Origin: a phage
Reading direction: 5' to 3' (one strand)
Length of the DNA: 64,000 nucleotides
NCBI GenBank assembly: GCA_029742005.1
Contig: GCA_029742005.1_4113.1
This document shows positions 6,679-45,561 of this stretch, piece after piece. How positions within the stretch are numbered: position 1 is the first letter of the stretch; every line of letters starts with the position of its first letter. The position numbers and the translations under genes were made by a program. Below the pieces are notes generated by a model. That model did no database searches and was not told the origin of the DNA. It saw only the letters and a list, made by a program, of their open reading frames with translations.

Positions 6679-6683
6679 AGAAA

Positions 6684-6718: not shown

Positions 6719-6745
6719 ATTTCATCAACTGATGAGGATAACGAA

Positions 6746-7516: not shown

Positions 7517-7525
7517 TTACATGTA

Positions 7526-7554
7526 TTGACAGTACTACACTATGGTAGTACTAT
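7526..7554 (+). promoter_or_regulatory. promoter TTGACA-17-TACTAT with inverted repeat AGTACTAC/GTAGTACT
   Basis: Consensus -35; weaker -10; palindrome spans the spacer. Confidence 0.45.
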
Positions 7555-7583
7555 AACTTAATATTCACCACCGGAGATACGAT

Positions 7584-8604: not shown

Positions 8605-8918
8605 TGGATATCTTAACATTGATTTACACGTTGTATTCATTCTATTTTATTATGTGTTGGGTTGGATTTTTATTTGTACTGAAGATGTTTGATTATGTTG
8701 AAAAACAGATAAAAGAATTTTGTATTCCTTTTATTGGGTCAACCATTATTAGTATTACTTGTTTGTATTATTTGGTATGTGATCCACCTGATGATACAGC
8801 TATGATTGATTTCATGTTATTGCCAACAACTGTTATTTTTTTATGTAGTCTGATGCCACCGATTAGCCGTGGACTAACTGAATTTAGACGCAATCAAAAG
8901 CGTAAACGAGGGATGTGA
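8604..8918 (+). CDS. small multi-pass membrane protein, family A
   Basis: RBS GAGG; C-terminus EFRRNQKRKRGM. Confidence 0.55.
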   Translation: MDILTLIYTLYSFYFIMCWVGFLFVLKMFDYVEKQIKEFCIPFIGSTIISITCLYYLVCDPPDDTAMIDFMLLPTTVIFLCSLMPPISRGLTEFRRNQKRKRGM

Positions 8919-9286
8919 TGGAAATTGCACTTATTATATTAACTGCTATGTTGTTTATTAGTACAATTGTTATTATTGGCAAGTTCTTCTGTGTATCCTT
9001 CTTGGAAACCGTATACGATGAAATTGCTGATGATTATGAATTACATGCGGGATTTTTTACTACGTATTGGATTAGTTTATTACTACTTATCACTGTATGG
9101 ATTTTACATATATTCAAATGGGGTATGGTAGATGGTGATCCAGTACTGGCAATTATCTGTGTAGTGTTTGGTCTACTCGGTGGTGCTGTCCATAATCTGA
9201 TGGTAATTTGGCAAACCGTACAATATGTATTAGTTCCACATTTTCAGAGAATGCACCAAAGCATCAAATACCGCAAACGAGGATAA
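8918..9286 (+). CDS. small multi-pass membrane protein, family A
   Basis: ATG at 8918 after RBS GAGGG (ORF track starts at GTG 8915). Confidence 0.55.
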   Translation: MEIALIILTAMLFISTIVIIGKFFCVSFLETVYDEIADDYELHAGFFTTYWISLLLLITVWILHIFKWGMVDGDPVLAIICVVFGLLGGAVHNLMVIWQTVQYVLVPHFQRMHQSIKYRKRG

Positions 9287-9287
9287 C

Positions 9288-9650
9288 ATGAATAATATTG
9301 AATTATCTTTTATTGGTCAATTAATGGTAATGGCGTATACATTTATCTTCTCACTGAATGCATTCGTGTGCATTGGGAAGTACTTCCATAAGCGACCATT
9401 ATCAAATATATATGATGTAATCCAAAAGAGATATAGTCCAGCATATACTGTGTTGGGTACAGTATTCAATTTTGGTTTTATTGTATTAATAATTGGACTG
9501 TTCACATCCTCTTTGAATACAATAACCTTCGGTCTTATGATATGTTCATTGGTATTAGCCGTAATTATATGTTGTTTAGTACTACACCTTGTGATACTAT
9601 TATATATAAAGATCTCTGAAATCCACCAACGTTTGGGTATGAGGAAATAA
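9288..9650 (+). CDS. small multi-pass membrane protein, family A
   Basis: RBS GAGGA; hydrophobic. Confidence 0.55.
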   Translation: MNNIELSFIGQLMVMAYTFIFSLNAFVCIGKYFHKRPLSNIYDVIQKRYSPAYTVLGTVFNFGFIVLIIGLFTSSLNTITFGLMICSLVLAVIICCLVLHLVILLYIKISEIHQRLGMRK

Positions 9651-9651
9651 T

Positions 9652-10023
9652 ATGAGTTACCGTGAGATATTTTCCATTATTTCAATTATTATGTTCAGTA
9701 CTGGAACACTGGTATGGTTATTATATTTCTTCTGTATTAATCCAGTGTATAATATGTTATGTAATATTAAATCAAGTGCCGGATATATCACTTTTATGGT
9801 CTTTATGGGATATTATTGTCTAAGCATTTTAGGTGTTGTTTTGGTTGTTATATTTGATGTGGGGCCAAATAGTGATGGTATGGAAATACATGAATTAATA
9901 ACCATGTTTGGATGTATGATACCAACAGCACTACTGTTTGTAGCTACTGGTAGTGGATTGATAAAATTATATAATTATTTAAAATCCATTCATAATTCCA
10001 TTCATAATAAGCGTATGTCATAA
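9652..10023 (+). CDS. small multi-pass membrane protein, family A
   Basis: RBS GAGGAA; hydrophobic. Confidence 0.55.
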   Translation: MSYREIFSIISIIMFSTGTLVWLLYFFCINPVYNMLCNIKSSAGYITFMVFMGYYCLSILGVVLVVIFDVGPNSDGMEIHELITMFGCMIPTALLFVATGSGLIKLYNYLKSIHNSIHNKRMS

Positions 10024-10065
10024 TAAAAAATCCAGTACTATTAAGTACTGGATGTATAAGGAGTT

Positions 10066-10728
10066 ATGATGAAATCAAAATTAGGTTTGTTTTATAAAAA
10101 CTATTTTGTTAAACAACGTAAATTTATAAAAAAATATTTCTCTGGTGAGAAGTCTAGTCCTATAATTTTTAAAAGACCAAGTTATAATACTTACTTAGCT
10201 GGTGCTAAACAGTCTAAGAAATTTATTACTCTTTTAAATAAAAACAAAATTAAAGCTTCTTATGTTGAAACGAGAAGAAACTCATCAATAACTCCTGGTG
10301 ATTTTATTGAGTACGGATGTTTCAATATTAAGTATAATGATAATACATACTTTATGGATATTGATTGTAATACATCCAATCTTTTTAACATTGTAGTAAA
10401 TCCATTAAAACAATATAATGTTTATGGTGATTCTATTATCAAATTAATAAAAAACAAAGATGGCTTTGATTTTGAAATAAATGTTTTAGATGATAATTTT
10501 GACGAAGTACCCGTAAACCCTGAAATCTGTGATATTTTAAACAGTTTAAAAGGTAGTACCTACAATATATCATCTGATTTAATGTTTCAGTACTCATTAA
10601 TCCATAAAGATATTGAAAAGTATATTGAATGCTCCAGAATTTTGAATTTTCTCTATGATGAATTTAAAAAGAGTTCTAAAATAACTGCATACACTTTGTA
10701 CAATATTCCTAAAATGGTGAATCTTTAA
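10066..10728 (+). CDS. hypothetical protein
   Basis: RBS AAGGAG; 220 aa; converges on the minus-strand block. Confidence 0.55.
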   Translation: MMKSKLGLFYKNYFVKQRKFIKKYFSGEKSSPIIFKRPSYNTYLAGAKQSKKFITLLNKNKIKASYVETRRNSSITPGDFIEYGCFNIKYNDNTYFMDIDCNTSNLFNIVVNPLKQYNVYGDSIIKLIKNKDGFDFEINVLDDNFDEVPVNPEICDILNSLKGSTYNISSDLMFQYSLIHKDIEKYIECSRILNFLYDEFKKSSKITAYTLYNIPKMVNL

Positions 10729-11132
10729 CAAATACAGTACTGGCAACTCCACCGTCTGTAATATATTGTCCAGTACTGTAAATTTGTATACCATCGGTTA
10801 AGTAAGTTCTGTATAAAGTTGCTGTAACATATACGTTATTCATATTCATCTCTATTGGTAGTACACATTTGGTATAGGCCGACACATCTGTTTGTGTACC
10901 TATACCCAATTGACCTGCGTTATCGCCTGTGTTATTACCAGTTGCGTAAACACCCAATGAAGTTATAATATGATTAGAAAAATATGAATAACCCAAACTC
11001 TTGAGATTCTCTACTGTACAACGTACCATCTGACATAAGGGCAAAAACTGTTGTATCAGATGAAGCTATTTTTGTTACAGAAGGTTGTATGTTCTGTTTT
11101 GATGATGTGATAATTCTTCGAAAGGGTAGCAT
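10709..11132 (-). pseudogene. truncated/frameshifted RCC1-like paralog
   Basis: MLPFRR start after GGAGGA at 11132; frame breaks in 10974-11044; downstream frame has GNNTGDNAGQLGIG; total about 170 aa versus 370-395 aa for paralogs. Confidence 0.4.
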
Positions 11133-11203
11133 TGTATCCTCCAAATGTAAATCGTTATTATATTTAGGACAAAAAATGCCAGTACAAGGCACTGGCATAA
11201 AAT

Positions 11204-12373
11204 CTAAGCAGAAGGCATATCCTTCATCTTAATAAATGAAAATTGTGTACCAGTATTTGTGGTTTGATCAGTAAAATATGAATTACTACCAGCCCAGTAC
11301 AATTCATTATTAACTATACAATATATAACAGAACTCGAACTCTGTGAATACACACGACTTATATTTGATGGTTCTACTCCAGTACTGAACTGAACCGAAC
11401 CCAACTGTGAACTTGGTATCACATCAGTTGGTCTACCTAAACCATTAACACCAGCCCCACCACCACATGTATATACCCCAGTACTATCAGTTGATATATT
11501 AACATAACCATTCCCGGCATTTTCAAATAGTATTTCACTGGGAGCAACACCAAATCCTGTAAGATCTATTTTCCTGAATGTAGTGTAAACAGTAGAACCA
11601 CCAACACCTCTTCCACCATAATCATTAGAACCAGCCATATAGATACTATATCCAGAACTTCCTAAACATAATAACTGTACGTTGTCATATAATATTTGCA
11701 TAGATATAACGTTATCAGGAATACTCAATACCGTAAAAGTAGTTAAAGAAGAACTTCCAATATTACTACCAACCGATGTTCCACATCTGTAGTACTTACC
11801 GCCTTTTATATAATGGAACGATGAACCCCCTAACTTATGTGCTCCTATTGCACTTACCTCAGTATCTATGAGAATGGGAGATACAACTTTGTTATTAACA
11901 CCTAACTCAGATCTACTGTTCATACCGAACCCATATAAACGACCATCTAACATCAATATTAGTGTACTACCGGAAGTACCCGCTGACGTAAATTCTATAT
12001 TCTTTATTTGCGACACGTCAATACCTACAAATAATGAAGTTACTTCAGTCCAGTTAACATATGAACCACTAGCCCCAAAATATCCACCCATGTATAGACC
12101 TGCACAATATAATTTATTATCAACAGTCTTTATTAATGTACCGGATACACACGCCCAAAAATCATCAACTTCATAGGGTACATGTACCCAACCACCTAAT
12201 ACATCACTAGCATCCCCTGTACCTAATTTATAGTTCGAACCAGAACCACGCATGTACATATTCCCTGTACTATAAAGTAATCCGACATGTAATTGACTAC
12301 CATCCAATTTCTTTATTTCGGGAAGAGTTGGTTTAATATTTCCGTACTTTAACATTCTTCCAAAAGGTAACAT
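11204..12373 (-). CDS. RCC1-like repeat (beta-propeller) protein, MLPF family
   Basis: Start MLPFGRMLKYGN after AAAGGAGGAA; G-x-N-x-x-G-x-LG-like repeats. Confidence 0.6.
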   Translation of the reverse strand: MLPFGRMLKYGNIKPTLPEIKKLDGSQLHVGLLYSTGNMYMRGSGSNYKLGTGDASDVLGGWVHVPYEVDDFWACVSGTLIKTVDNKLYCAGLYMGGYFGASGSYVNWTEVTSLFVGIDVSQIKNIEFTSAGTSGSTLILMLDGRLYGFGMNSRSELGVNNKVVSPILIDTEVSAIGAHKLGGSSFHYIKGGKYYRCGTSVGSNIGSSSLTTFTVLSIPDNVISMQILYDNVQLLCLGSSGYSIYMAGSNDYGGRGVGGSTVYTTFRKIDLTGFGVAPSEILFENAGNGYVNISTDSTGVYTCGGGAGVNGLGRPTDVIPSSQLGSVQFSTGVEPSNISRVYSQSSSSVIYCIVNNELYWAGSNSYFTDQTTNTGTQFSFIKMKDMPSA

Positions 12374-12399
12374 AATTCCTCCTTTATTCATTATACTAT

Positions 12400-12437
12400 A
12401 TTTAATACAAAAAGAAAAGCCAGTACAGAGTACTGGC
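12400..12437 (-). terminator. terminator hairpin GCCAGTAC-N3-GTACTGGC with T-run on minus strand
   Basis: Perfect 8-bp stem; minus-strand transcript reads hairpin then TTTTCTTTTT. Confidence 0.55.
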
Positions 12438-12444
12438 CTATATT

Positions 12445-13164
12445 TTAGACTGAATTGTTAGGATAATATCTCCCACGTCCCCATATTATTCGCACAGCAC
12501 CACCACCAGCAGCCGTATAAGAAAAATTATCCCATATACTACCACCACCACCATACATCTTACCAGCACCACCACTACCAGCACCACCATTATATGAACC
12601 ATCGTATCTACCGCCAATACCATTAGCACCTTGAACAATGATACCAGTACCACCACCCGTACCAATGAACGAGGTATTATAGAATGCACCACCACCGCCG
12701 CCGCCGCCAGCACCATTTTCACCAGTGATTGCATCTCCGTTACCACCTTTACCAGTGTAGCCACCAGCACCACCACCAATGACTGCACCACCACTTACAC
12801 CAGCGTTGCCCCCATTACCACCACCATCATTAATAGCGTTAGCAGCTTTCCCACCTAGTCCACCAACCCTATATTCACCAGTGAAGCTAACACATAGTTT
12901 TTCAGTTCCACGATATAAACCGTTTTCAACTGGTGTAGTAGTGTTGGGATGTGTAAGAGAAACACTTAAGTACTCACCACTAGTAACCGGAATATTATTA
13001 CGCCACGATAAGCCGCCACCAGCACCACGTTGACCACCCGGCGAAATAACACATACTGATATTTCGGTAACGCCAGCAGGAACTGTAAATTGTGTTGTTC
13101 CTATTGTCGTGATTAATTGTTCACCATGTGGCTTATATTCAATTTTATTCCCTCCTTTATTCAT
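12445..13164 (-). CDS. glycine-rich repeat protein (possible fibre-like structural protein)
   Basis: 239 aa, long GGxGG runs in C-terminal two thirds; same upstream module as RCC1 genes. Confidence 0.55.
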   Translation of the reverse strand: MNKGGNKIEYKPHGEQLITTIGTTQFTVPAGVTEISVCVISPGGQRGAGGGLSWRNNIPVTSGEYLSVSLTHPNTTTPVENGLYRGTEKLCVSFTGEYRVGGLGGKAANAINDGGGNGGNAGVSGGAVIGGGAGGYTGKGGNGDAITGENGAGGGGGGGAFYNTSFIGTGGGTGIIVQGANGIGGRYDGSYNGGAGSGGAGKMYGGGGSIWDNFSYTAAGGGAVRIIWGRGRYYPNNSV

Positions 13165-13180
13165 TATAATATATTTAATA

Positions 13181-13211
13181 CAAAAAAGAAAAGCCAGTAC
13201 TCTGTACTGGC
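13181..13211 (-). terminator. terminator hairpin GCCAGTAC-N3-GTACTGGC with T-run
   Basis: Same hairpin as 12419-12437. Confidence 0.55.
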
Positions 13212-13218
13212 TTTTACA

Positions 13219-14409
13219 TTACAATTGTCTAGGTGTATCCAGTACATATCTATTTGTACGAGGACCACCATCATCATGCGTTCCGGTTGAATATATATTT
13301 TTCATATCAGCAGTTAGGAAAGTACGATACGAACCGCGATATATTTTAATTTTATCATACATAGAATATGTTATTCCTGACGGCAATGGACATGCAGTAA
13401 ATTTACCAATGGTAACATTAGAACCAACACCTAATGTACCAGCATAACCACTCGCATTTAAACCAGTTGCATATACACCTGTACTCGTAACTAGTATACT
13501 AGATTGTGATGCATATCCAGTATGGATTGAATAATAAGTTCCTGATGGTAATGTAGTACTATTATTCCCTAATACTGCTAGTGCTGTACTATTCGTAGTG
13601 TTATTACCCCATGCCCCATTATTAGCTAATCCACCAACTAGAAACTGACGTGCTCCTGTATTTGGATTCTCCACTAAAGCACTGACAGCACCAAATGAAC
13701 AAACAGTATATTGTAATGTTTTTGTATATGTGGTACTTGGCTTATACAAAGTATATTCATTAAATGGTGTCCATGTGGTACTAGTACTTATGCCAGATGT
13801 ACTACCACCAATATATAAATTATTTTGTGTATCAAAAAACATTGCACAGTAATTTGTTGACTGTATTTGTGCAATATCTACATCTGGTGTTACCGCTTTA
13901 ACAAATGAACCATCTGATATTTGATAAGTAGTTCCTGTACCATCTGCGAATTGTCTAGCACTATTCCACCCTGTACTCCATATTGTATTATTATCCATTA
14001 AGAAAGTAAACCATGTAGTACCTGCATACATCTGTTTAATTGAAGTACTTGAACTTTGTTTGTACAATTTTTCAATATATTGGTTATAACTTAAAAATGA
14101 TGTAGTACTAGTTTCTAAACCAATATGACTACCATATCCACAATAAAAATAATTTAAGTCCTTATCTTGAACTAACAAAGTTCCTTGTGTCATCCAGCAA
14201 TCTTTGACATTTTCTCTAATTAATGTCCACGACCTTACTGCATTATTATTTCCTCTACCAAACTTCCCAAAACTATTACTGCCTCGTGCGTATAGTTGAC
14301 CGTCGGTATAAAGTACAACAACCTCAGTATCAGTTGGTATTATTTTCTTAATTTGAAGAGGTTCAGGTGTGATATTCCCATAATCAAACATTCTAACAAA
14401 AGGTAACAT
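13219..14409 (-). CDS. RCC1-like repeat protein, MLPF family
   Basis: MLPFVRMFDYGN; RBS AAGGAGGAAAT; repeats such as YARGSNSFGKFGRGNN. Confidence 0.6.
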   Translation of the reverse strand: MLPFVRMFDYGNITPEPLQIKKIIPTDTEVVVLYTDGQLYARGSNSFGKFGRGNNNAVRSWTLIRENVKDCWMTQGTLLVQDKDLNYFYCGYGSHIGLETSTTSFLSYNQYIEKLYKQSSSTSIKQMYAGTTWFTFLMDNNTIWSTGWNSARQFADGTGTTYQISDGSFVKAVTPDVDIAQIQSTNYCAMFFDTQNNLYIGGSTSGISTSTTWTPFNEYTLYKPSTTYTKTLQYTVCSFGAVSALVENPNTGARQFLVGGLANNGAWGNNTTNSTALAVLGNNSTTLPSGTYYSIHTGYASQSSILVTSTGVYATGLNASGYAGTLGVGSNVTIGKFTACPLPSGITYSMYDKIKIYRGSYRTFLTADMKNIYSTGTHDDGGPRTNRYVLDTPRQL

Positions 14410-14478
14410 ATTTCCTCCTTATTCATTATACTATATTTAATACAAATAAGAATGCCAGTATCAAGTACTGGCATTATG

Positions 14479-15588
14479 TTATTTTGGTAAATCAATTTTA
14501 GTAAAGACTGCAACATCCTCGATTGCACCTGGAATGGCGTAATACGATCCAGTACTATACACATCTCCATTTTTGGTTAATATCGATGTCAAACCATCAC
14601 TAAAAAGAACATCCCTAATCTCACTAACTTCAACGGGTAATTGTAAATTGGTAGCACTATATATAGCACCAGTTTGAGAATTGTTTAATCCCAAACCACG
14701 GTTCGCCCCAACACCCTTCTGATATGTACTAGTAATTACCATTTGTGTAGCAGTATTTAAGGCAGGTGAATTCGTCATAAACAACGGAGAACTATTAGGC
14801 AAAGTACTTACAGGAACGGCACGGAATGTAGTCGTGCCTGAACTAAGAAAGTTTGGAGTTTGACCACATACGAAATATGATGTACCATTATAGTAATTGA
14901 ATGCATTACCACCAATGGCTGCATCGATTACACCAGAACTACGCAATCCCCAAGTGTTAATTTGTGTTTGGTTCCCCGTACCATGCTGTCCACTACTATT
15001 CCATCCAGAACTATATAGCTTATTATCTAATGTAAGATACATACTATCATTCGCATTGGTCATTACTTTACGAACGTTCGTAGCACATTGAGTTAATGTG
15101 TAAATTGATGAGGAACCAATACCCAAAGAACCACGATATCCATTATCTCCTGCACCATAGAGTACTGAATTAGTGCTAAGTACAAATATTAAACCATTTG
15201 TACATACAATATTAGCAATTTCACTTACTGGTATAGCATTGGTAAACCAATTAGTCCTTTCAACTAATACAGTACTGTAAGAAGTAGTTGTAGAAGATGA
15301 GAACCAGTACGTTTGACCTGATGTCCATATCGTATTATCATTTTTAATAATAACAAGTGTACGATCACCCACGAAAAAATTAGAAACATCTGCACTTACT
15401 AATATCCATGAAGATACCGTGTTGGTATTACCATTTCCAGATTCACCACCTTGATTTCTACCTATGTAATATAAATCATGTGAATCAGTCAATAAGAATT
15501 GACCTTGTGTAGAAGCACCAACTTTAATTATATTTTTAGGACCAGGTACAATATTTCCGTACTTAACCATTCTTGCAAAAGGTAACAT
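14479..15588 (-). CDS. RCC1-like repeat protein, MLPF family
   Basis: MLPFARMVKYGN start; 369 aa. Confidence 0.6.
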   Translation of the reverse strand: MLPFARMVKYGNIVPGPKNIIKVGASTQGQFLLTDSHDLYYIGRNQGGESGNGNTNTVSSWILVSADVSNFFVGDRTLVIIKNDNTIWTSGQTYWFSSSTTTSYSTVLVERTNWFTNAIPVSEIANIVCTNGLIFVLSTNSVLYGAGDNGYRGSLGIGSSSIYTLTQCATNVRKVMTNANDSMYLTLDNKLYSSGWNSSGQHGTGNQTQINTWGLRSSGVIDAAIGGNAFNYYNGTSYFVCGQTPNFLSSGTTTFRAVPVSTLPNSSPLFMTNSPALNTATQMVITSTYQKGVGANRGLGLNNSQTGAIYSATNLQLPVEVSEIRDVLFSDGLTSILTKNGDVYSTGSYYAIPGAIEDVAVFTKIDLPK

Positions 15589-15598
15589 AATTCTCTCC

Positions 15599-16729
15599 TT
15601 AATTTAATAATGCCCCTGGCAAATCCACTTTGACGAATTGTGCATATGCTGAGGAATTTTGATCAAAGTTTGGTCCCAATCCATAAAATGAGCTAATGCC
15701 GTCTTCATTTGTGTATATGATATAAACGTTCTTTACATCATTTCCGCATATAAATCGAATGTCTTTCGTTTGTGTTCCCGCTGGAACATTACGAAGGTTC
15801 ACAACGCCATTACTTGCATTGTTATCAGCCGACGCAATTGGTAATTGATTTTGACCATATTGACCACGCATATTTTTTGCATCTAAACCAAACACAGTAT
15901 TTGATACCGCACCAACTTTCAAAAATGAACCAAAACTATTATTGAATGACTTTGGAAATGTACCACTATAAACACTTCTCCCATCTGATAATACCGCTGA
16001 ACTGAATTTCCCGTTATTCGATATGGCAAATTCATTGTAAGGAAGTGTACCCATTTTGGTATATACAGAATATGAATTAGTGGAAGTATTATCAATAATC
16101 TTATTACCATTATATCCAATACCATACTGGTATCCGTCTGCATCTTGAACTATACACAAAGGACCACTTGGGGTTTGTGTCAACGAAACAACACGTTCAA
16201 CTTGTATATCACCAAATGTATTTCTTCGCCATGTTCTATCTATTATAGTACTAGTATTACCCAAAGATAATTCCACACTATATAATAGATTGTTTTCAGT
16301 AAAAATGGCAACATAATATGCGTGGTTAATAACTTGCTTCATCCCAGCATCAATAACTTCCTGTGGAATATGATCAGTAACATCCAACCAATCAAGGTTA
16401 GATGATGCAATATCTGGAGTACTGAATTTGTCAAATCTAGTTGAGCCACAAACTAGCACTCTATCATCATTTGTCAAAGCCACTGTGCTAGTCTGCATAT
16501 TAGAACTGAATGATTTAACATTACTAATGTTAGACTTGTACCAACCCTTATCAGCAGCACCCACCGTGAATCCGGTTCCCATTGATCCACTTGTACTTGT
16601 ACCATAAGCCCACATCTCACCACTATATGTTAGTGCCATACAGTGGCTTCCATTTGCTTGGAAATCCTTTATACCAGTGGGAGCAACCACTGTATTCCCA
16701 TAATCAAACATTCTAACAAAAGGTAACAT
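15599..16729 (-). CDS. RCC1-like repeat protein, MLPF family
   Basis: MLPFVRMFDYGN after GGAGAT; track start MEILV is the SD region. Confidence 0.6.
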   Translation of the reverse strand: MLPFVRMFDYGNTVVAPTGIKDFQANGSHCMALTYSGEMWAYGTSTSGSMGTGFTVGAADKGWYKSNISNVKSFSSNMQTSTVALTNDDRVLVCGSTRFDKFSTPDIASSNLDWLDVTDHIPQEVIDAGMKQVINHAYYVAIFTENNLLYSVELSLGNTSTIIDRTWRRNTFGDIQVERVVSLTQTPSGPLCIVQDADGYQYGIGYNGNKIIDNTSTNSYSVYTKMGTLPYNEFAISNNGKFSSAVLSDGRSVYSGTFPKSFNNSFGSFLKVGAVSNTVFGLDAKNMRGQYGQNQLPIASADNNASNGVVNLRNVPAGTQTKDIRFICGNDVKNVYIIYTNEDGISSFYGLGPNFDQNSSAYAQFVKVDLPGALLN

Positions 16730-16804
16730 AACTAAAATCTCCATATAATAATTATAATGTATTTACAAAAAAATACCAGTACATATTTCAGTACTGGCAT
16801 TTTG

Positions 16805-17932
16805 TTAAAATGGTAAATCTATTTGTTTAGTAAATGTCATACTTAGTGGTATTGAACACATTGACGCATTTCTCCCATTTAAATTGGACGGAGGCTGTCC
16901 GTTCATCCATATATTGGTATCGTCGTAAAAAGTACTCCACCACGTAGAACCTTCCGTATGAAGATTAATATTAAAATCAGGGAATTGACATTCTTGAAAA
17001 ACATCAAAAAACGGGATAGATGATACACTACTACCAGTAAATGGAGTGTAGCCTGTTGACATTAATTTATTAGTATCCGAATTTACCAAAAAGATAACAG
17101 AACCAGTATTGAATGGTGAATATTTTGGATACAAATTACTCATATCACCGATAGTGAAGTTGATATCAAATATTTTACTATGCTTACCAGTTCCTGAAAG
17201 TGTAGTACCAGTTACATATATTTTATTATCAGTTGTTCCCATGACAAACCCAATTCCAAATCCCACACAAAATGTTATGTCATATGGTATATTATCAAAG
17301 AGTGGGACAAACGTTGTGGCATCACCAGTAGTAGCTTTTATTTGATAGCTATTATTTGCCCCAGCACCCCAAACAGTACCATTTGATTTCACTTTGAATA
17401 TACTATCTCCTATGTAGTGACCGTATATACTATCAACTTCAGTATCAAGTTTTGTCCATTGTGATACAAAGTTTTTATGCCCTAAACCTAAACAACCATT
17501 GCGGTTTAGTCCCCTGCCGTATAGTGTACCATCATTCATCAGTACAAATGTTGTGTATCCACAAAGCATTTTTTTGATTTGTGTAACATCAATACCAGCA
17601 AAAAAACCACTCCAATCAGTATATCCTTGTTGGATTGCGTTTGATTTGGTGAATGACATAGTTGGTCCTGAACCATATATTTTACCATCTTTTATAATCA
17701 CTGAATAAGAACCTAACCATACATCTTGAACATTCTCACTAATTGTTTTCAATTCACCATATGCAGAGAATGGAGTACTTTGCCCTGCACTATATGATGA
17801 ATCTTCACCGTGTGCATATAATGTTCCATTTTCTGTTAGAATCATTTCCAAATATACACAATTGACAATTTTCTTTATTTTATTAACTTCTATTTTATTT
17901 CCGTACGCTAACATCCTTGCAAAAGGTAACAT
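16805..17932 (-). CDS. RCC1-like repeat protein, MLPF family
   Basis: MLPFARMLAYGN; YGRGLNRNGCLGLGH repeat. Confidence 0.6.
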   Translation of the reverse strand: MLPFARMLAYGNKIEVNKIKKIVNCVYLEMILTENGTLYAHGEDSSYSAGQSTPFSAYGELKTISENVQDVWLGSYSVIIKDGKIYGSGPTMSFTKSNAIQQGYTDWSGFFAGIDVTQIKKMLCGYTTFVLMNDGTLYGRGLNRNGCLGLGHKNFVSQWTKLDTEVDSIYGHYIGDSIFKVKSNGTVWGAGANNSYQIKATTGDATTFVPLFDNIPYDITFCVGFGIGFVMGTTDNKIYVTGTTLSGTGKHSKIFDINFTIGDMSNLYPKYSPFNTGSVIFLVNSDTNKLMSTGYTPFTGSSVSSIPFFDVFQECQFPDFNINLHTEGSTWWSTFYDDTNIWMNGQPPSNLNGRNASMCSIPLSMTFTKQIDLPF

Positions 17933-18007
17933 AACTAAAATCTCCATATAATAATTATAATGTATTTACAAAAAAATACCAGCACATATTTCAGTACTGG
18001 TATAATG

Positions 18008-19180
18008 TTATGGTAAAATAATAGCTTGTAACGAACTCATACCCAATGTTGGAACACTCGCCTGTGGTGCTGGTGCATTCACTTTTGGTGATGAAACCGC
18101 ATAAGTCATTCCTGTACCCAAATCTGGATCAAAAACTACAGAACAATAATCCCCATTGTATATAAGTCCATTAGTATATCCTTGTACACTTTGAATGCAT
18201 TTCGTGAACGTACCAATGTCAGTAGTGGCATTTATTAAGTTCCTCCCACGGTAGCCACATGTGTATATGAAATTATCATCACCTATGTACATACTCGCAT
18301 TCCCAGAAGAACTACATAGATAAGACATATAAGCACGCATGTTTTTAGGAGCAACTGACAATGTACCAGCATAGAATTTATTATTCATACCCGAAATATC
18401 ACCATCACCCAAAGCACCAAAACTCCCCCAACCAGTACCATAATATCTCTTATCACTCAAGAATATAATACAGTTGTTATTACACATCTTGACTTGATAT
18501 ATCAATGAAGGATCAACCCCAGGGAATGATTCAGTGTATGTTAGAACAGCCAGATCAGTACTGGCATTACATTGATGATATGTATTAGTACCAGCGGACA
18601 ATATTGTACCATCAACTAATAGAATCCTCGAAGTGCCAGTACCAGCAATACAAGCAACAGCATTACCTGTATATATTTTTCTGAAAGTAAAGAAACCAAC
18701 AGTCTTACTCCCCTGTCCACTCCAACCAGTATTATCAACACCACATGCCCATACTGAACCATCTTGCATGATCATCATTACACCATAGCGTTCTATCGAA
18801 ATATAGACAATCTTCGTAGTATCAACTGCACTAAATCTAGAAGTTATATCAGTCCAAACCTTTACACTCACCGCCGTCGCACCGAAAGTAGGATCTTCCC
18901 CTGCTATCATTATCCTACCATTGTTAGTCAGATACATTGTCTGACTATAACCAGTACTACAAAACTTAACACTATCAGTCTCTGGAACTTTTAACCACTC
19001 GTTGTAACGTGTTACGTTAGTGTTATTATCTAACTGATAATAGTTATTCATCCCAGATACATATAACACACCATCCTTTATTAAACTATAAGTCGCACTA
19101 TAGTCACTACAGGTATAACGTGTACCCACAGGTCGCTCAACGACGTTCCCATATTCTAACATCCTTACAAAAGGCAACAT
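18008..19180 (-). CDS. RCC1-like repeat protein, MLPF family
   Basis: MLPFVRMLEYGN; no clear SD; start uncertain. Confidence 0.5.
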   Translation of the reverse strand: MLPFVRMLEYGNVVERPVGTRYTCSDYSATYSLIKDGVLYVSGMNNYYQLDNNTNVTRYNEWLKVPETDSVKFCSTGYSQTMYLTNNGRIMIAGEDPTFGATAVSVKVWTDITSRFSAVDTTKIVYISIERYGVMMIMQDGSVWACGVDNTGWSGQGSKTVGFFTFRKIYTGNAVACIAGTGTSRILLVDGTILSAGTNTYHQCNASTDLAVLTYTESFPGVDPSLIYQVKMCNNNCIIFLSDKRYYGTGWGSFGALGDGDISGMNNKFYAGTLSVAPKNMRAYMSYLCSSSGNASMYIGDDNFIYTCGYRGRNLINATTDIGTFTKCIQSVQGYTNGLIYNGDYCSVVFDPDLGTGMTYAVSSPKVNAPAPQASVPTLGMSSLQAIILP

Positions 19181-19221
19181 AACTAAATACCAGAACATAT
19201 TTCAGTACTGGTATCGTAGCG

Positions 19222-20364
19222 TTAAAATGGCATCTTAACCTCTTTATATACTAATATATCACCGGATAAACCAGGAAACGCAGAACCATTACCACATGCA
19301 TATATAGTACTGTCATTCCACGCCGCTTGATGGTAATTACCTATAGTACATTTATAATTCGATAAATCAGTCACACCAGGTGTTAGTACATAATATACTG
19401 GTCCACTAGGTAAATTAAAATCAAATCTACCAAAGTAGTTCAAACCAGATGAATAGGACTTGTCATTAGCAAATATTACAGTACCATCTTCTGTAAAAGA
19501 ACTGTGAGAAATGTCTTTGAGATTGTTCACAACACCAGACGGTATTGATGTATTCAACGTAAAGGACGTCAATGGTGCTGCACTCGGTGTGTTGTTCGCC
19601 GTGTAACCATAATATGCATAACCAGCTACATATACACTCGAATCTGAACAAAATAAAAATGCACTCCTATAACCCAACCTAATACTCTCTATAGTCTTAC
19701 TAAAAGTAACTTTAGTAAAGGTAGGAACTAAACCACTATATCCTACCCCACATGTACCAAAATCATTCTTCCCAGTACTGTACAATTCGTTATTATTTGT
19801 AAGGTAAAATGACGCAGCAGCACCGCTATCTAAAGTACTGTAAACGTCTTTTACATTACTCGCAATCAATTTAAATGCACTCAATACGGTAGCCGAACCA
19901 TTGTTAGACAGCGTTGTTGAATCCGTGCCTTGTCCTATTGTATATAAATCTCCAGTACTAGTCAAAACAAATATACCATTAGTCGCCATAACAATTCTGT
20001 CATTCTTTAAATTAAATGAACTAAAAAGTGTACTTATATCAGTAAAGGTAGTATAACGCCCACTCTGCCCTATACTCGATAAATTCCCACTCAAATAAAC
20101 CTTATTATCATTACCAACAGCTACATAACAACCCCACCCAGCATATATCTGATCAATGCCTTGTATCGGTATTTGTAACCATTCACTACCAGTTACCGAA
20201 GCAGTACTTCCAGTTCCAAGTTCACCAGAGTTATTAGCTCCGAATACATATAAATTCCCACTATCCGATAAAACAACTGTATTACCAACTCCAGTTTTTA
20301 TATCCTTGATACCATTCTTAGGAGCAACATTCCCATAATCAAACATTCTAACAAAAGGTAACAT
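19222..20364 (-). CDS. RCC1-like repeat protein, MLPF family
   Basis: MLPFVRMFDYGN; RBS GGAGGGAAAT. Confidence 0.6.
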   Translation of the reverse strand: MLPFVRMFDYGNVAPKNGIKDIKTGVGNTVVLSDSGNLYVFGANNSGELGTGSTASVTGSEWLQIPIQGIDQIYAGWGCYVAVGNDNKVYLSGNLSSIGQSGRYTTFTDISTLFSSFNLKNDRIVMATNGIFVLTSTGDLYTIGQGTDSTTLSNNGSATVLSAFKLIASNVKDVYSTLDSGAAASFYLTNNNELYSTGKNDFGTCGVGYSGLVPTFTKVTFSKTIESIRLGYRSAFLFCSDSSVYVAGYAYYGYTANNTPSAAPLTSFTLNTSIPSGVVNNLKDISHSSFTEDGTVIFANDKSYSSGLNYFGRFDFNLPSGPVYYVLTPGVTDLSNYKCTIGNYHQAAWNDSTIYACGNGSAFPGLSGDILVYKEVKMPF

Positions 20365-20436
20365 ATTTCCCTCCTTTATTCATTATACTATATTTAATCA
20401 AAAATAAAAGCCAGTACTTGAGTACTGGCATAGTAT

Positions 20437-21564
20437 TCAAAAAGGTAAATCAATTTGCTTAGTAATAATAGTATCTAACGGTATTGAACACAATGAGAAA
20501 TTCTTTCCACCCGTATTTTCAGGATTATATCCATTCATCCATACATTATTACCTTCGTAAAATGTATTCCAGTATAAAGCCCCACTATATCGTGTATTCG
20601 AATTGAACGATGGAAAGTTGAATTCTTGGAATGATGTAAAATATGGAATGGAACTTGAACTACTTCCCGTAAATGGGGTATACCCAGTTGCTATTAGTTT
20701 GTTTGTATCTGCATTAATTAAAAATACAACACTAGTCGAATAGTCCAACGAATCAGGATGATATATATTACTCATATCACCTATAGTAAAACCAACATCA
20801 AAAACTTTACTATGTGCACCACTACCAGCAAAAGTAGTTCCAGTTGCATATATTTTATTATCAGATGTTATCATTACAAAACCAACACCAGAAACAAAAC
20901 TGCATTTTATATCATAAGATATATCATCAAACAACGGAACAAATGTGGTTGCATCACCCGATGTTGCTTTAACTTGAAAGCTGTTATTTGAACCTGAACC
21001 ATATACAGTTCCATCGTTTTTAATCTTAAACAATGTATCGCCAAGGTAACCGCCAAATATATTATCCACATTAGTGTCAAGTACAGTCCACGCTGAAACA
21101 TAATTTTTATGTCCTAAACCTAATGCACCACTTCGATTCCATCCTCTTCCATAAAGTGTTCCGTCTTTCATTAATATAAATGCTGTATAACCACATAACA
21201 TTTTTTTAATTTGGGTAACATCTATACCAGTGAAATACACAGCCCAGTCAGTATATCCTTGTTGGAAAGTATCAGAATTCGTGAATGCATATGTTGGACC
21301 TGAACCATATATTTTATCACCTTTAATAACAACGGAAAACAATCCTAACCATAAGTCATCAACTTCAGTTGTGATTTGTTGAACTGCTCCTAACGATACA
21401 AACTTTGTACTTAAACCCGCATTATAGTTTGAATCTTCACCGTGTGCATATACAGTGCCATCTTGCATTAGAAACATTTCAAGAGTGCCACTAACAACAC
21501 TTTTCTTTATATTATTAACTTCGATTATATTCCCATAATCAAACATTCTAACAAAAGGTAACAT
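20437..21564 (-). CDS. RCC1-like repeat protein, MLPF family
   Basis: MLPFVRMFDYGN; YGRGWNRSGALGLGH repeat; closest paralog of 16805-17932. Confidence 0.6.
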   Translation of the reverse strand: MLPFVRMFDYGNIIEVNNIKKSVVSGTLEMFLMQDGTVYAHGEDSNYNAGLSTKFVSLGAVQQITTEVDDLWLGLFSVVIKGDKIYGSGPTYAFTNSDTFQQGYTDWAVYFTGIDVTQIKKMLCGYTAFILMKDGTLYGRGWNRSGALGLGHKNYVSAWTVLDTNVDNIFGGYLGDTLFKIKNDGTVYGSGSNNSFQVKATSGDATTFVPLFDDISYDIKCSFVSGVGFVMITSDNKIYATGTTFAGSGAHSKVFDVGFTIGDMSNIYHPDSLDYSTSVVFLINADTNKLIATGYTPFTGSSSSSIPYFTSFQEFNFPSFNSNTRYSGALYWNTFYEGNNVWMNGYNPENTGGKNFSLCSIPLDTIITKQIDLPF

Positions 21565-26868: not shown

Positions 26869-27506
26869 TTAAACACAAGTAGACAGGGGAAGCTCCTAGT
26901 GAACAACCTTTATGTACAGGCGAATTGTTAAAATTCAGCCTGGACAAATGCGATCACTAGGATTCTCCCCAGGCTAAACCCCGTAATCATAGGTAGTCAT
27001 AAGTAATCATATATAAACATTTATATGAGCACCGTAGAATCACAGAATGATTATATATGATTCAGTACTGATTAGTATAGACAAGATTGCTCAAGAATGC
27101 ACGGAAATGTGTGTGAATGATTCAGTACTGATATCCCACTAAGTAGGCAGAGGAAGTCTGCCGTACTTTTTAGTTTCCAAGCTCCTTTTCCATTTTTCAA
27201 ATTACATCAAATGTAATCAAAAGTAATCACGCAATGATTAGTACTGAATTATTACTTTCACCTTAATTTCAATGACCCCTTTACCCTTCGGGGTAAAATT
27301 CCATTACCCCTTGAGGCTCCAGCAAAAAGTTGGTTAGTACTCCATCCTAAATCTCGATCCTAAAAATTTTGGAGTACCTATGAAATAAAAGTTGGATCTT
27401 CGAAAGTTGAAATTTACGTTGGGACGTTTATGATTTGTGGGATATAATGATGTTTGTAGTCGGGTAGTTCTCAAGAATATCAGTACTGAATAATGAAAGA
27501 AAGCTA

Positions 27507-27534
27507 TTGACATTATGATTCAGTACTGTATAAT
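27507..27534 (+). promoter_or_regulatory. promoter TTGACA-16-TATAAT in non-coding region
   Basis: Consensus hexamers; no protein ORF downstream. Confidence 0.5.
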
Positions 27535-27540
27535 GTTCTA

Positions 27541-27655
27541 CATAGCTTCAAGGGGTGATGAGTTGCTGCGAACAATTCATTTACTCTACCTCCTGTCGTG
27601 AGACAGTACAGAAAAGATAGTTCCTCCTGTGGTGGTACATCTTTTTGAACCTCAT
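27541..27655 (+). ncRNA. candidate small non-coding transcript
   Basis: Promoter upstream, no credible ORF, T-run near 27650. Confidence 0.25.
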
Positions 27656-27726
27656 ATGAAAATCGTAATAACAGTACTGATATTAACAGAATGGTGTCAG
27701 TACTGATTTTAATCTAAAGCATTATG

Positions 27727-27746
27727 CCACCAGCACAAGCTGGTGG
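27727..27746 (+). repeat. inverted Chi octamers forming hairpin CCACCAGC-ACAA-GCTGGTGG
   Basis: Perfect 8-bp inverted repeat whose arms are the E. coli Chi octamer and its complement. Confidence 0.6.
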
Positions 27747-27889
27747 ATTCCCTCTAACAGTATTCAGTACTACATGATAGTCTTCATCCTCCTAGGGTAA
27801 CATAGTGAGGGCTATGATGGCAGTACTGAATACTCCCTTTCAAAAGATAGATCTATGGTATAGTACTGACGGATTTTGGGCGTAGTTAC

Positions 27890-28060
27890 CCTGGATGGAT
27901 TTTGGACGTAGATATGTCTAGCCCTCCAGAAGTCTGGAAGTAAAGATGGCTATCCATCTAGACGGCTAAACGGCTAGATTTCTGGATGGCTGGATGGCTA
28001 GACGTTTGGACGGCTAAACGGCTAGATGGTTACACGTCTGGAAGTATAGACGGCTAAATC
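27890..28060. repeat. iteron-like direct repeat cluster
   Basis: GACGGCTAAACGGCTAGAT at 27961 and 28009, partial at 28049; TCTGGAAGTA twice; palindrome AGATGGCTATCCATCT. Confidence 0.6.
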
Positions 28061-28816
28061 AAAATTTTATTTTGTTTTTTCCAATAGTTCCCCTACCGCG
28101 TGGGGATAGTTTCCCCGCAGTATCTGGAGTTAGATTTTTCTGAATCTGGAATCATTATCTTATAAACTGGGGGCAATGTCAACCGCCTGGACGGATATTT
28201 TTAAAAATTTTTTCAGTACTGAATTTTGGGCGTAACTATGCACCCGGTGGGCTATAGTCTTTCTCGACTTGATGGAACTATTATACAGTACTGAAAAAAT
28301 AAAGCAATACCCTGGAAGCAAAAAAGTTTTAATTAATTTGCTTGCCATCCTGGGCCGTACTATGGTACTATATTTCAGTACTGAGAAAGTGCGTTTACCT
28401 GCTAGGGTGCGGGAGTGTATCCTTTTTTTATATCTTGAATTTTGGGCGTAATTCCGCACCCTCTGGGGTTTCCGCTTTCTCGCGTCTATGTAGTAATTAT
28501 ACGCTTTTTCAGGATCAAGTCAATACCTAAAAACAAAATAATTGAAAATAATTTAACGCGTTTAAACGGCCCGTAACGCCCTGGAATGATTGGAATGGTG
28601 CAAATGTATAGCTTAGGTGTATTAATGCGTTAGAATGCGTCTGAGGCCGTTTTACGGGGTATGGGGATGATTTAGTGGATTGATTCAGTACTGAATGATA
28701 GTACTACTATATAGAAAGATAGTTCCCCTGGATGGTTGCAGTACTGAATGATAGTACTGAATAATAGTTCCCCTATATAGAAAGAAAACTATTTTAAAAG
28801 TATTTGTAGAAAGTAC

Positions 28817-28844
28817 TTGCAAACTATGTTTAACGGCGTATAAT
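28817..28844 (+). promoter_or_regulatory. promoter TTGCAA-16-TATAAT followed by 5' stem-loop at 28856-28877
   Basis: First PeSL-like unit of the 28.8-45.3 kb region. Confidence 0.6.
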
Positions 28845-45330: not shown

Positions 45331-45561
45331 TGCGTAAAAGGATTTAGTACTGAATCAAAAAAAAGTCAAGGCATTTTTTTCATGCGTCGAAAAAAAACTT
45401 AACCAGTACACTATCACGCATGAAATAATTTTGACCAGTGATTATATCTCTTGCCCTAAAGGGCGGGTAATGTCTTAGCGAGCATATTGGAGTTCTTGGG
45501 TAGGACAAAATTATTTCTTGTGCTATAATTATATCGAATGTAATCATAGAAAGGAGTCCCT

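Follow-up and report, generated by a model that had tools for sequence, protein, structure and literature searches.

A gene-free leader at the predicted left end of an Asteriusvirus jumbo phage genome and its candidate array of MetJ-type operator boxes

The subject of this study is an interval of around 2 kb (positions 26880-28840) in a window of 64,000 nucleotides of phage DNA (NCBI GenBank assembly GCA_029742005.1, contig GCA_029742005.1_4113.1; "the window" denotes this whole stretch) that seems to encode no protein and is densely packed with repeats and palindromes. We propose, with moderate confidence in the explanation as a whole, that this interval is a non-coding control region located where the genome of an Asteriusvirus has its physical left end, and that its gene-free leader carries promoters, Chi sites, and a tandem array of 8-bp units that resembles the operators of the methionine repressor MetJ. 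The coordinates of all features are collected in Table 1.

Judged by its sequence, the source phage is an Asteriusvirus (PBECO4/121Q-like) jumbo coliphage, i.e., a giant virus of E. coli. Megablast with positions 26880-28840 matched 42 phage records, almost all of them Escherichia or Salmonella jumbo phages of this genus such as PBECO4, 121Q, phAPEC6, G17, and fEgEco12, and 35 of the 42 cover at least 80% of the interval at identities of mostly 95-98%. Most of these records leave the interval unannotated, while 5-8 "hypothetical proteins" have been entered there in a few. An earlier sequence-only reading of this DNA had seen no credible open reading frame (ORF) in the interval, and this was borne out: The ORF list shows only short ORFs within it, and none of the six internal ORFs matched Pfam or PHROGs, for which reason we take the 99-amino-acid minus-strand ORF g614 annotated in fEgEco12 as spurious. 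The flanking genes both match PHROGs (26677-26868, phrog_11711; 28843/28900-29262, phrog_7352). The gene-free span is thus 26869-28842, or up to 28899 if the first gene of the terminal repeat begins at ATG 28900, which is preceded by a ribosome-binding site (RBS). Several relatives have this gene annotated from 28843, but the ATG at 28843 overlaps the -10 element of the gene's own promoter, Pe1, and we therefore prefer the in-frame, RBS-preceded ATG 28900, as used in BF17, as its probable real start. Searches of the window for tRNAs and Rfam families gave no match, and none of the Rfam 15 covariance models reached the gathering score in the window or in six related leaders, with a single match at chance level (E = 0.03). 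The AT-rich flanks described earlier are modest, with a GC content of 0.35-0.40 compared to 0.475 in the 8-bp array itself, and one A/T run is located at 28056-28080.

Records of relatives longer than ~360 kb were matched twice by the interval, an indication of terminal repeats. Position 27142 of the window corresponds to base 1 of the records of fEgEco12, vB_Ec-M-J, BF17, CRJP21, BAU.Micro_ELP-22, and E9.1 and, as reverse complement, to the last base of the G17 record, so that seven records in all share it as an end (genome start AGTAGGCAGAGGAAGTCTGCC...). For fEgEco12 (374,733 bp with a direct terminal repeat (DTR) of 20,993 bp), the termini come from a PhageTerm analysis that restriction digests confirmed (PMC13070987), and a terminal redundancy of ~20 kb was deduced from sequence coverage for G17 (PMC6563267). 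The vB_Ec-M-J record annotates "Direct Terminal Repeats" at 1..21525. Both DTR copies of fEgEco12 are identical along 20,993 bp and diverge exactly at ...GATATCCCACTA|AGTAGG (the bar marks the cut), with flanks that differ at both boundaries, and Muenster has a PhageTerm repeat at 1..20030 with the homologous cut CCACTA|AGT. By homology to these ends, the left DTR boundary and thus the physical left genome end of the source phage lies at 27141|27142, i.e., inside the interval, and the earlier suggestion to look there for packaging-related ends was well aimed. The interval accordingly comprises 273 bp of unique DNA (26869-27141) and a 1.7-kb gene-free leader that opens the DTR, with the first early gene next.

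Asteriusvirus DTRs measure ~18-21 kb, and alignment of the window to the last bases of fEgEco12, vB_Ec-M-J, and G17 (...CTAAAGGGCGGGTAACCT) predicts the right boundary at ~45475|45476, which would give an 18.3-kb repeat (27142-45475). GC content rises stepwise at ~27 kb and remains high to ~48 kb, with no drop at 45.5 kb. The motif (C/G)CACTA| is conserved at the cut in RaK2/Muenster, GAP32, and EJP2 (contexts: ATATCCCACTA|AGT in the source phage, ATATGCCACTA|AGT in RaK2, CCTTCCACTA|TATCTG in GAP32, and TTGCACTA|TATCTT in EJP2), and four genera have a palindrome with an AGTACT core 11-17 bp upstream of this terminase cut. Two further candidate boundary signals were rejected, namely GAAGTC/GACTTC as an inverted signal at both cuts, which is seen in fEgEco12 but missing at the right boundary of the window, and ATGTAATCA ~65 bp to the right of both window cuts, which is not kept in fEgEco12.

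The leader's most conspicuous element is its array. MetJ operators consist of tandem 8-bp boxes ("met boxes") with the consensus AGACGTCT, each bound by one repressor dimer. The repeats that had been taken for 19-bp iterons form an array with a strict 8-bp period according to both Tandem Repeats Finder and a repeat finder (units AGATGGCT, AGACGGCT, AAACGGCT, GGATGGCT, AGACGTTT, and ACACGTCT), and the supposed 19-mer is simply two and a half met boxes. We scored this DNA with the met-box matrix published by Augustus & Spicer (PMC3228920 Table 3) and applied their criteria for accepting a site, which demand at least 2 adjacent in-phase boxes, each with at least one quarter of the consensus score, and a total at or above the consensus score (12.58 bits). 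Positions 27944-28055 hold 14 contiguous in-phase boxes that total 102.8 bits against the 12.58 required, with two more boxes at 27912 and 27928, while elsewhere in the 64 kb just one site was accepted, with 2 boxes and a marginal score. As a positive control, 5.2 kb of E. coli K-12 returned only the metJ/metB (31.2 bits) and metF (24.9 bits) operators with 4 boxes each. The phage boxes average 7.3 bits, compared to 6-8 in native operators, and the array is 3-7x longer than any operator, with 3-4x as many boxes as any E. coli operator has. At 7 of the 8 positions, the base frequencies agree with the profile of MetJ even in the minor bases (A>G at position 1, C>T at position 4, C>T and A at position 7), a T|A step is found at 9 of 13 box junctions, and none of 20,000 column-permuted/base-relabelled arrays reached the score of the array. 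Close relatives differ by whole 8-bp units and have 12, 13, 14, or 15 boxes. In silico, the former iterons thus score as a tandem in-phase array of 14-16 MetJ-type met boxes, and MetJ may bind them, which could make the array a sponge, a sensor, or a roadblock.

The cognate repressor is available in the host, as metJ was retrieved from E. coli. No phage-encoded MetJ homologue was found by tblastn of phage records (three matches were host-DNA records), and we rejected a host origin of the array itself because searches of 5,426 E. coli genomes and 72,556 plasmids returned nothing. Two other ligands were considered and discarded: CsrA, because GGA occurs in only around half of the units and in almost none of those in Aeromonas phage arrays, and TrpR, whose tandem sites share CTAG at 8-bp spacing but have ACTAGT flanks that do not fit.

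Using the array alone as blastn query, 86 phage records were matched. Besides those in the jumbo phages, heterogeneous arrays of 9-28 boxes are found in the phiKT-like podovirus PGT2 (9 boxes at nt 38-109 of the record) and in T5-like siphoviruses of Vibrio, Aeromonas, and Providencia, i.e., Pontus (15 boxes), AhSzq-1 (28 boxes, 221 bits), AhSzw-1, and PSTCR5, where they are non-coding and lie within ~1 kb of DTR or record ends or in a terminal-repeat gap. The T5-like arrays adjoin a LexA-type palindrome, DnaA boxes, and GTGCAAATCC-type repeats in a region that is homologous to Repeat Region 3 of T5. A scan of IMG/VR with a degenerate 5-unit pattern was discarded as a source of further examples; it returned mostly single-unit 8-bp microsatellites in unrelated or giant-virus contigs, and heterogeneous arrays only in known T5-like contigs. 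The orders that possess MetJ include Enterobacterales, Vibrionales, and Aeromonadales (PMC3228920), and the hosts of all but one of the array-bearing phages belong to these three orders.

No met boxes were found in Repeat Region 3 of T5 itself. Its positions 9470-9640 (AY587007) instead contain 4 19-mers that resemble binding sites of the iron-sensing repressor Fur (defined as at least 14 of 19 positions of GATAATGATAATCATTATC), compared to 0.1 in shuffles, and Muenster and RaK2 have 7 such Fur-box-like 19-mers each, compared to 0.2 in shuffles (at 787-905, 1073-1097, and 1306-1324 in Muenster and in the same places in RaK2). The Fur boxes of Muenster and RaK2 lie directly upstream of the TTTTCC..ATTAG..CCC motif that trails the met-box arrays in other genera, and this common downstream motif therefore makes the two kinds of array positional equivalents. 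The pattern suggests that this slot of the leader is meant for arrays of sites for metabolite-sensing host repressors. Palindrome D of T5 (TACTGTATAAATATACAGTA) and its counterparts are built like a LexA SOS box (CTGT-N8-ACAG) and lie beside DnaA boxes (T5 9330-9349, Pontus 784-799, AhSzq-1 ~1139-1154); Davison's article on the T5 injection-stop signal (iss) treats DnaA boxes only (bioRxiv 10.1101/866236).

Several observations weigh against our interpretation or parts of it. At position 6, the phage boxes have G in 64% and T in 36% of cases, compared to T in 87% and G in 10% of native boxes. A G there leaves each box with one weaker half-site and gives the units a direction, and we regard this as the chief internal argument against a straightforward MetJ reading; a different binder of 8-bp repeats, e.g., a phage ribbon-helix-helix protein, could thus be the real ligand. 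Unlike every known MetJ operator, the stretch from 27912 to 28055 is overlapped by no sigma-70-like promoter, and a regulatory role for the array would therefore be non-canonical. No methionine gene is found near it either, and it overlaps no promoter of a met or S-adenosylmethionine (SAM) gene. The matrix also accepts 8-bp microsatellites made of a single unit in unrelated viral contigs, so that the met-box score alone is no proof, and the number of sites is only ~16 per genome copy, so that titration could matter only post-replication. Phage XbC2 carries a 14-box array and is recorded on Xanthomonas vesicatoria, which belongs to an order without MetJ, and either this host record or the MetJ reading needs re-examination. 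Beyond the array, the terminus of the source phage was transferred from relatives that are 94-98% identical, and Chi sites are absent from the first 3.5 kb of Eneladusvirus and Alcyoneusvirus leaders.

The proximity of array and genome end would also fit a role in packaging, in which the phage terminase or an accessory protein would use the whole leader including the array as a platform to position the cut at 27141|27142 and to bring about duplication of the repeat from concatemers, with the array binding a phage protein, or a host protein merely as a roadblock for forks or motors. The cut lies inside the interval with a conserved motif, GTAATCA 10-bp repeats are present on both sides of it, and arrays occur at most ~1 kb from the DTR boundary in three phage families; in T7, short-repeat arrays adjoin the terminal repeat as well. 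However, a shared phage-encoded binder is unlikely for three families with unrelated gene sets, the unit fits the matrix of a host repressor, close relatives with the same motif at the cut have Fur boxes instead of the array, and the distance is variable (770-915 bp from the cut here versus 38-109 bp from the end in PGT2). We view this explanation as unlikely: The cut site in the interval is certain, but a part of the array in packaging is doubtful.

The T5 parallel suggests another alternative. Repeat Region 3 of T5 is untranslated, conserved, and "extremely complicated", and overruns the repeat boundary by 270 bp (Davison, 10.1101/866236). By an attractive analogy, the leader might stop injection or control entry where the terminal repeat has its inner boundary, with host proteins on the arrays (MetJ or Fur; DnaA in T5) that would arrest or ratchet incoming DNA until early proteins are made. 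The two regions are indeed both untranslated, dense in repeats and palindromes, and straddle a boundary by nearly the same length (270 bp in T5, 273 bp here), and met-box or Fur-box modules are also present in T5-like phages. Against this speaks that two-step entry is unreported for these jumbo phages, that the T5 region lies downstream of pre-early genes while the leader is located upstream of early genes, and that the paired DnaA boxes (IRD'-spacer-IRC') conserved in the 25 T5-like iss regions compared by Davison are absent here, all of which makes an entry checkpoint very unlikely in our eyes.

Least probable among the alternatives that we weighed is a replication origin, be it of the iteron type with an A/T-rich element for unwinding or of the R-loop type driven by P1 or the leftward promoters of the leader. 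The small plus-strand genes at 22860-26868 have a GC skew of -0.12 to -0.23 and an AT skew of ~+0.2, opposite to the plus-strand genes of the DTR, and the cumulative GC skew therefore has its minimum exactly at the repeat boundary. This minimum at ~27 kb, with negative skew in plus-strand genes from 22.9 to 26.9 kb and positive skew in genes to the right, would be expected of an origin, as would the strong ORF-less promoters and the A/T run at 28056-28080, and R-loop origins need no iterons. Yet the skew step coincides with a compositional boundary between repeat and unique DNA, the 8-bp period and the fit to the MetJ matrix contrast with the helically phased 17-22-bp units of iterons, no DnaA box (TTWTNCACA) is found in 26400-28842, and no ORF in or beside the gap matches an initiator-like family. 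Furthermore, the homologous arrays of T5-like phages lie in the terminal-repeat non-coding region that Davison argues contains no origin (10.1101/866236), and T5 origins map near mid-genome (Davison, bioRxiv 10.1101/866236). Of the earlier proposal of an origin or other DNA-protein assembly site, the second half is right, whereas the origin is not supported, given the 8-bp period, the missing DnaA boxes, and the lack of an initiator-like ORF.

Conservation of the leader exceeds that of the neighboring genes. Among 7 Asteriusvirus sequences compared in 50-bp bins, identity is 0.84-1.0 on the DTR side, except for 0.66-0.76 at 28677-28776, and 0.47-0.83 on the unique side and in the upstream gene. 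Records that start with 1.3-1.8 kb of gene-free DNA are also those of Muenster (Klebsiella, Alcyoneusvirus), BF (Serratia) and pEa12 (Erwinia), which are both Eneladusvirus, and XbC2 (Mimasvirus). Side-by-side reading revealed a layout that is collinear in Asteriusvirus, Alcyoneusvirus, Eneladusvirus, and Mimasvirus. It begins with the (C/G)CACTA terminus, a hairpin from the first base with GAAGTC at +12, and a AAATCTCGA / AAAATTTTGGAGTACC block; a sigma-70 promoter at +270 to +390, hairpins, a short-period array, and the motif TTTTCCATTAG(T/C)TCCCCTTCCGCG follow in the middle; and the 3' part consists of promoter P2 with a terminated transcript of ~50 nt, an AGGGTGC...GCACCCT inverted repeat, and the leftward module B. 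At the level of single motifs, GAAGTC at +12 to +17 is shared by the source phage with Eneladusvirus and Mimasvirus termini (with TATCT..CCTGAAGTC at base 1 of BF, pEa12, and XbC2), the conserved block at 27340..27378 is recognisable in the leaders of BF, XbC2, GAP32, and Muenster, GAATTTTGGGTGTA precedes the array in BF and GAP32 too, and TTTTCCATTAG(T/C)TCCCCTTCCGCGTC is found downstream of the array in BF, pEa12, XbC2, GAP32, and Yen9-04, with a related form behind the Fur-box cluster of Muenster and RaK2. The distant relative PA5oct has no gene-free leader; its genes begin from nt 122. The leader of XbC2 (OP292654) is nearly collinear with that of Cronobacter phage GAP32. Eneladusvirus and Mimasvirus leaders also have a conserved stretch of ~150 nt behind a strong promoter (ATCGAAAGGCGG.AAGGTTCGCCGGATGATAGG ... 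CCTATCTACCGCC; BF ~1500-1660, XbC2 ~1425-1590, GAP32 ~2790-2935, and Yen9-04 ~815-960) that resembles a structured RNA, has no Rfam match, and is missing from the window.

The consensus promoter without an ORF that the sequence-only reading had pointed out is real in the sense that a perfect sigma-70 promoter, P1 (TTGACA-16-TATAAT), lies at 27507-27534, and Muenster, BF, XbC2, and GAP32 have a strong promoter at the equivalent position, +270 to +390 as counted from the end. The predicted P1 transcript has a fold z of -1.55, which is not significant alone, and contains a 20-codon ORF whose frame is not conserved in EJP2 according to sequence reading. At the place of P2, all 9 of the 9 sequences compared have a promoter (TTGACA/TTGCAA-17-TATAAT-like). 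The leftward promoter at 28154..28182 is not clearly conserved as such in other genera. The inverted repeat AGGGTGCGG/CCGCACCCT that follows P2 is present in nine sequences from four genera with an invariant GGGTGC/GCACCC core, and 4 of the 19 pairs of its helix show compensatory change; given this invariant core and a covariation term of ~0, we dropped a claim of RNA structure (or of a protein site), and sequence-specific recognition appears as likely as RNA structure. Module B is 67-72% identical to the Klebsiella phages Muenster, RaK2, and K64-1 and is found by blastn at a similar distance from the terminus (1156-1383 in Muenster versus 1139-1361 here). The repeated element TTTTGGGCGTA is the distal part of this leftward module of ~90 bp, which occurs twice in the leader and partially beside the array. 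A third copy is located at 31765-31835 (GCACCCGGTGGG...GTAGTAATTATGCCAGTACTGG) between two rightward early genes, so that modules with this antisense orientation also exist outside the leader; GCCCACAGGGTGC recurs at ~39345, where it adjoins a Chi site. A promoter of the Pe1 type recurs at 29277-29304.

These elements could also mean that the interval is primarily a cluster of small non-coding RNA genes, comprising RNAs from P1 and P2 as well as leftward transcripts of modules B and B' that run antisense to P2, to which the repeats would be secondary. Consensus or near-consensus promoters are indeed followed by terminator-like hairpins, and both the location of the promoters and the initially transcribed sequence are kept from genus to genus. 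On the other hand, there is no Rfam match, the fold z of the putative RNAs is unremarkable (-1.3 and -1.55), the best conserved helix has a covariation term of ~0, and the 8-bp array, Chi, and the cut site would be left unexplained, which is why we judge such a cluster to be a decidedly improbable account of the region.

The window contains 14 Chi sites where 0.35 would be expected (~40-fold), and the predicted DTR has eight GCTGGTGG and two CCACCAGC on its plus strand, i.e., ~1 Chi per 1.8 kb, of which 6 of 10 are intergenic. Following the orientation rule from PMC12315714, GCTGGTGG on the plus strand is active versus RecBCD that enters from the right end and CCACCAGC versus entry from the left. 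The first left-active CCACCAGC is the leader copy at 586 bp from the terminus, and a left-active leader Chi is found at +576 to +588 in fEgEco12, vB_Ec-M-J, 121Q, and EJP2. Similarly, the fEgEco12 DTR has ten right-active and two left-active Chi sites. This arrangement suggests that both free ends are managed via RecBCD and Chi, instead of or besides an inhibitor. Chi enrichment is known from phages without recombinases (PMC3784561), and oriented terminal Chi clusters from some lambdoid phages, e.g., LLS (PMC12315714).

Taken together, these features would be compatible with the following scenario. At each infection, the leader DNA would be exposed as a free end, and RecBCD entering there would degrade ~0.6 kb of gene-free DNA before it meets Chi and becomes a loader of RecA, which would favor recombination between the repeats and thus the formation of circles or concatemers. 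Host RNA polymerase would fire P1, P2, and the leftward modules and produce short non-coding transcripts, while MetJ-SAM would polymerise cooperatively on the array. Hundreds of genome copies with two arrays each may then trap MetJ and de-repress methionine and SAM synthesis; alternatively, the array could form a SAM-dependent nucleoprotein block between the convergent rightward and leftward promoters of the leader. Titration or such a block is suggested because the array is over-long, lacks promoter overlap, and is interchangeable with a Fur-box cluster, and we rank titration above the block with modest confidence. It is tempting to generalize that non-coding DNA at the ends of terminal-repeat phages serves as a cis-acting slot for large homotypic arrays of host-repressor sites, either for MetJ-SAM (here and in Eneladusvirus, Mimasvirus, phiKT-like, and Vibrio/Aeromonas T5-like phages) or for Fur-Fe (in T5 and RaK2-like Klebsiella phages), and that three unrelated lineages acquired these independently to reprogram methionine/SAM or iron metabolism by titration without any phage protein or to gate early infection on the state of the host, but this wider proposal is speculative and we put it forward only tentatively.

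Table 1. Features of the gene-free interval and its surroundings (window coordinates; a bar marks a cut).
Feature	Position	Strand	Remarks
Last 273 bp of the unique side	26869..27141		non-coding
100-nt hairpin, unique side	arms 26880-26902 / 26954-26976		z = -4.1
10-bp-period GTAATCA repeat, unique side	26983-27011
Palindrome, unique side	27005-27021 / 27046-27062
Two 27-nt direct repeats	27046-27072, 27106-27132		each with terminal CAGTACTGAT
Terminase cut-site context AGTACTGATATCCCACTA|AGT	27124..27144	+	cut 27141|27142
Terminal hairpin (first 26 nt), GGCAGA/TCTGCC core, then T-run	27142..27172	+	terminator-like; z = -3.4
10-bp-period repeat TCAAATGTAA x3.3	27197..27229	+	GTAATCA motif resembling 26983-27011 across the cut
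Conserved block CTCCATCCTAAATCTCGATCCTAAAAATTTTGGAGTACC	27340..27378	+	100% identity in seven Asteriusvirus sequences
P1, perfect sigma-70 promoter TTGACA-16-TATAAT (12/12)	27507..27534	+	CAGTACTG in spacer, adjoining -10
Predicted non-coding P1 transcript, ~107 nt	27541..27650	+	putative; three hairpins, the last followed by UUUUU
14-bp-stem hairpin made of two CAGTACTG palindromes	27672..27705		z = -5.6 for 27660-27760
Back-to-back Chi pair CCACCAGC-ACAA-GCTGGTGG	27727..27746		called terminator by ARNOLD in G17
Two copies of G(A/G)(C/T)GGATTTTGG(G/A)CGTAG	27868..27914	+	motif also in the downstream leftward-promoter modules
Repeated element TTTTGGGCGTA	27874, 28224, 28440		plus TTTTGGACGTA at 27900; related element at ~31765-31835
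Candidate met-box array	27912..28055		18 in-phase 8-bp units, 16 above single-box threshold
Direct repeat TCTGGAAGTA	27933 and 28037
Palindrome AGATGGCTATCCATCT	27944
Direct repeat GACGGCTAAACGGCTAGAT	27961 and 28009
A/T run, then conserved motif TTCCAATAGTTCCCCTACCGCGTGGGG	28056..28105	+
Leftward sigma-70-like promoter TTGACA-17-GATAAT (11/12)	28154..28182	-	aimed at the array
Module B': leftward TTGCTT-16-TATAAT and initial transcribed region GTCGAGAAAGAC..GCCCACCGGGTGC..TTACGCCCAAAATTC	28218..28315	-	CAGTACTG adjoining -10
P2 (TTGCCA-18-TACTAT) and predicted ~50-nt transcript	28342..28430	+	terminator hairpin 28404-28423 plus T7
Conserved inverted repeat AGGGTGCGG / CCGCACCCT	28404..28462		28404-28412 / 28454-28462; spacing 41 bp here, ~40-60 elsewhere
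Module B: leftward TTGACT-16-TATAAT (28523-28496) and conserved initial transcribed region	28434..28523	-
Cluster of AGTACTGAAT(G/A)ATAGT and ATAGTTCCCCT repeats	28686..28790		upstream of Pe1; 13-bp period; least conserved part of the leader (0.66-0.76)
Pe1, first reiterated early promoter AAAGTACTTGCAA-16-TATAAT	28817..28844	+	then stem-loop, RBS, first DTR gene
Predicted right DTR boundary CTAAAGGGCGGGTAATGTCT|TAGCG	45456..45480	+	cut ~45475|45476, outside the interval

All repeats listed in the earlier reading were recovered no more than 3 bp from where it had placed them, and its long-range inverted repeat at 26886/26954 is genuine and gives a hairpin of 100 nt when folded (z = -4.1; 0 of 200 shuffles). 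The same reading had also counted at least 16 palindromes in the interval, which holds for the AGTACT core (19) but not for the exact CAGTACTG (12, with 7 further AGTACT cores making up the difference), and examples are located at 27063, 27123, 27521, and 28286. Neither form is peculiar to this locus: CAGTACTG occurs 61 times in the window versus 0.83 expected, and AGTACT 269 times versus ~21 expected (~12-fold over-represented), in all three reading frames and at 3.4 per kb in coding versus 8.2 per kb in non-coding DNA. Given this genome-wide excess, the palindrome is not specific to the interval, where it is ~2-3x denser, and thus is a genome-wide motif rather than the mark of a locus. It is nearly missing from 52-60 kb, has TTCAGTACTGAA as its extended form, and often adjoins a -10 element (CAGTACTG-TATAAT) on either strand. 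We considered a binding site of SlmA, with which the palindrome shares its core, and rejected it because the flanks are TTC..GAA and not the GTG..CAC of the SlmA consensus.

The terminal repeats of these phages have already been published. In a limited collection of literature on MetJ or met boxes in phage DNA, on host-factor decoys, on these jumbo phages, and on the T5 region, we found no description of the other elements; as far as this literature goes, the gene-free leader with its layout, the CCACTA| motif, the double Chi, and, above all, the MetJ-type super-array with its Fur counterpart, which T5-like and phiKT-like phages share, are thus undescribed. If our interpretation is correct, it gives a testable identity to DNA that is blank or spuriously annotated in dozens of jumbo phage records, and the assignment of the terminus fixes the physical start of these genomes. 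A MetJ "super-operator" of 14-28 boxes would be a new, DNA-only route by which a virus could sense or rewire host metabolism and, with both kinds of array occurring there, would offer a fresh handle on the long-puzzling iss region of T5. The oriented Chi clusters suggest that RecBCD is managed by sequence rather than by an inhibitor, which bears on phage engineering and on defenses that sense DNA ends.

Among known systems, the region as a whole bears a close likeness to iss/Repeat Region 3 of T5, which is likewise 1.2-2 kb of untranslated, conserved DNA packed with direct and inverted repeats and palindromes, overruns a repeat boundary by ~270 bp, and belongs to a long terminal repeat in which many small early genes are driven by sigma-70. 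Its T5-like homologues in phages of Aeromonas, Vibrio, and Providencia share the met-box arrays, and T5 shares Fur-like boxes with RaK2. Yet T5 is an unrelated siphovirus of ~120 kb and the source phage a myovirus of ~350 kb; the T5 region is found at the inner repeat end downstream of the pre-early genes, whereas the leader starts at the terminus upstream of the early genes, and the paired DnaA boxes, LexA-type palindrome, and GTGCAAATCCGACA repeats of T5 are absent here. An attempt to map the T5 region onto the leader by flipping gene orientation failed against the T5 annotation. With bona fide MetJ operators, the array shares the strict tandem 8-bp phase, the per-box scores, T|A junctions, and the preferred bases at 7 of the 8 positions, but those operators have 2-5 boxes with T at position 6 and overlap promoters, while the phage arrays have 14-28 boxes with a G-dominated position 6 and reside in the DNA of virulent phages.

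The left end of T7-group genomes consists of the terminal repeat, a short-repeat array (SRL), the host promoters A1-A3, and the first gene. The T7 group thus resembles the leader in having a gene-free stretch at the early-gene end, a short-period array by the terminal repeat, and strong host-type promoters, but T7 has 7-bp CCTAAAG units and a repeat of 160 bp compared to met boxes and 18-21 kb here, and transcription-driven entry is not known from jumbo phages. Lambdoid phages such as LLS share over-represented, oriented (8:2 in the DTR here), terminal, and mostly intergenic Chi sites, but the ends of the source phage are DTR ends and not cos, and a palindromic double Chi lies near one of them. 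Finally, titration loci such as datA for DnaA, iteron "handcuffing" or decoy arrays, and synthetic decoys (PMC3322331) are homotypic clusters that have similarly been proposed to sequester a regulator; these act on the regulator of their own element or cell, whereas here a virulent phage would trap a metabolic repressor of its host.

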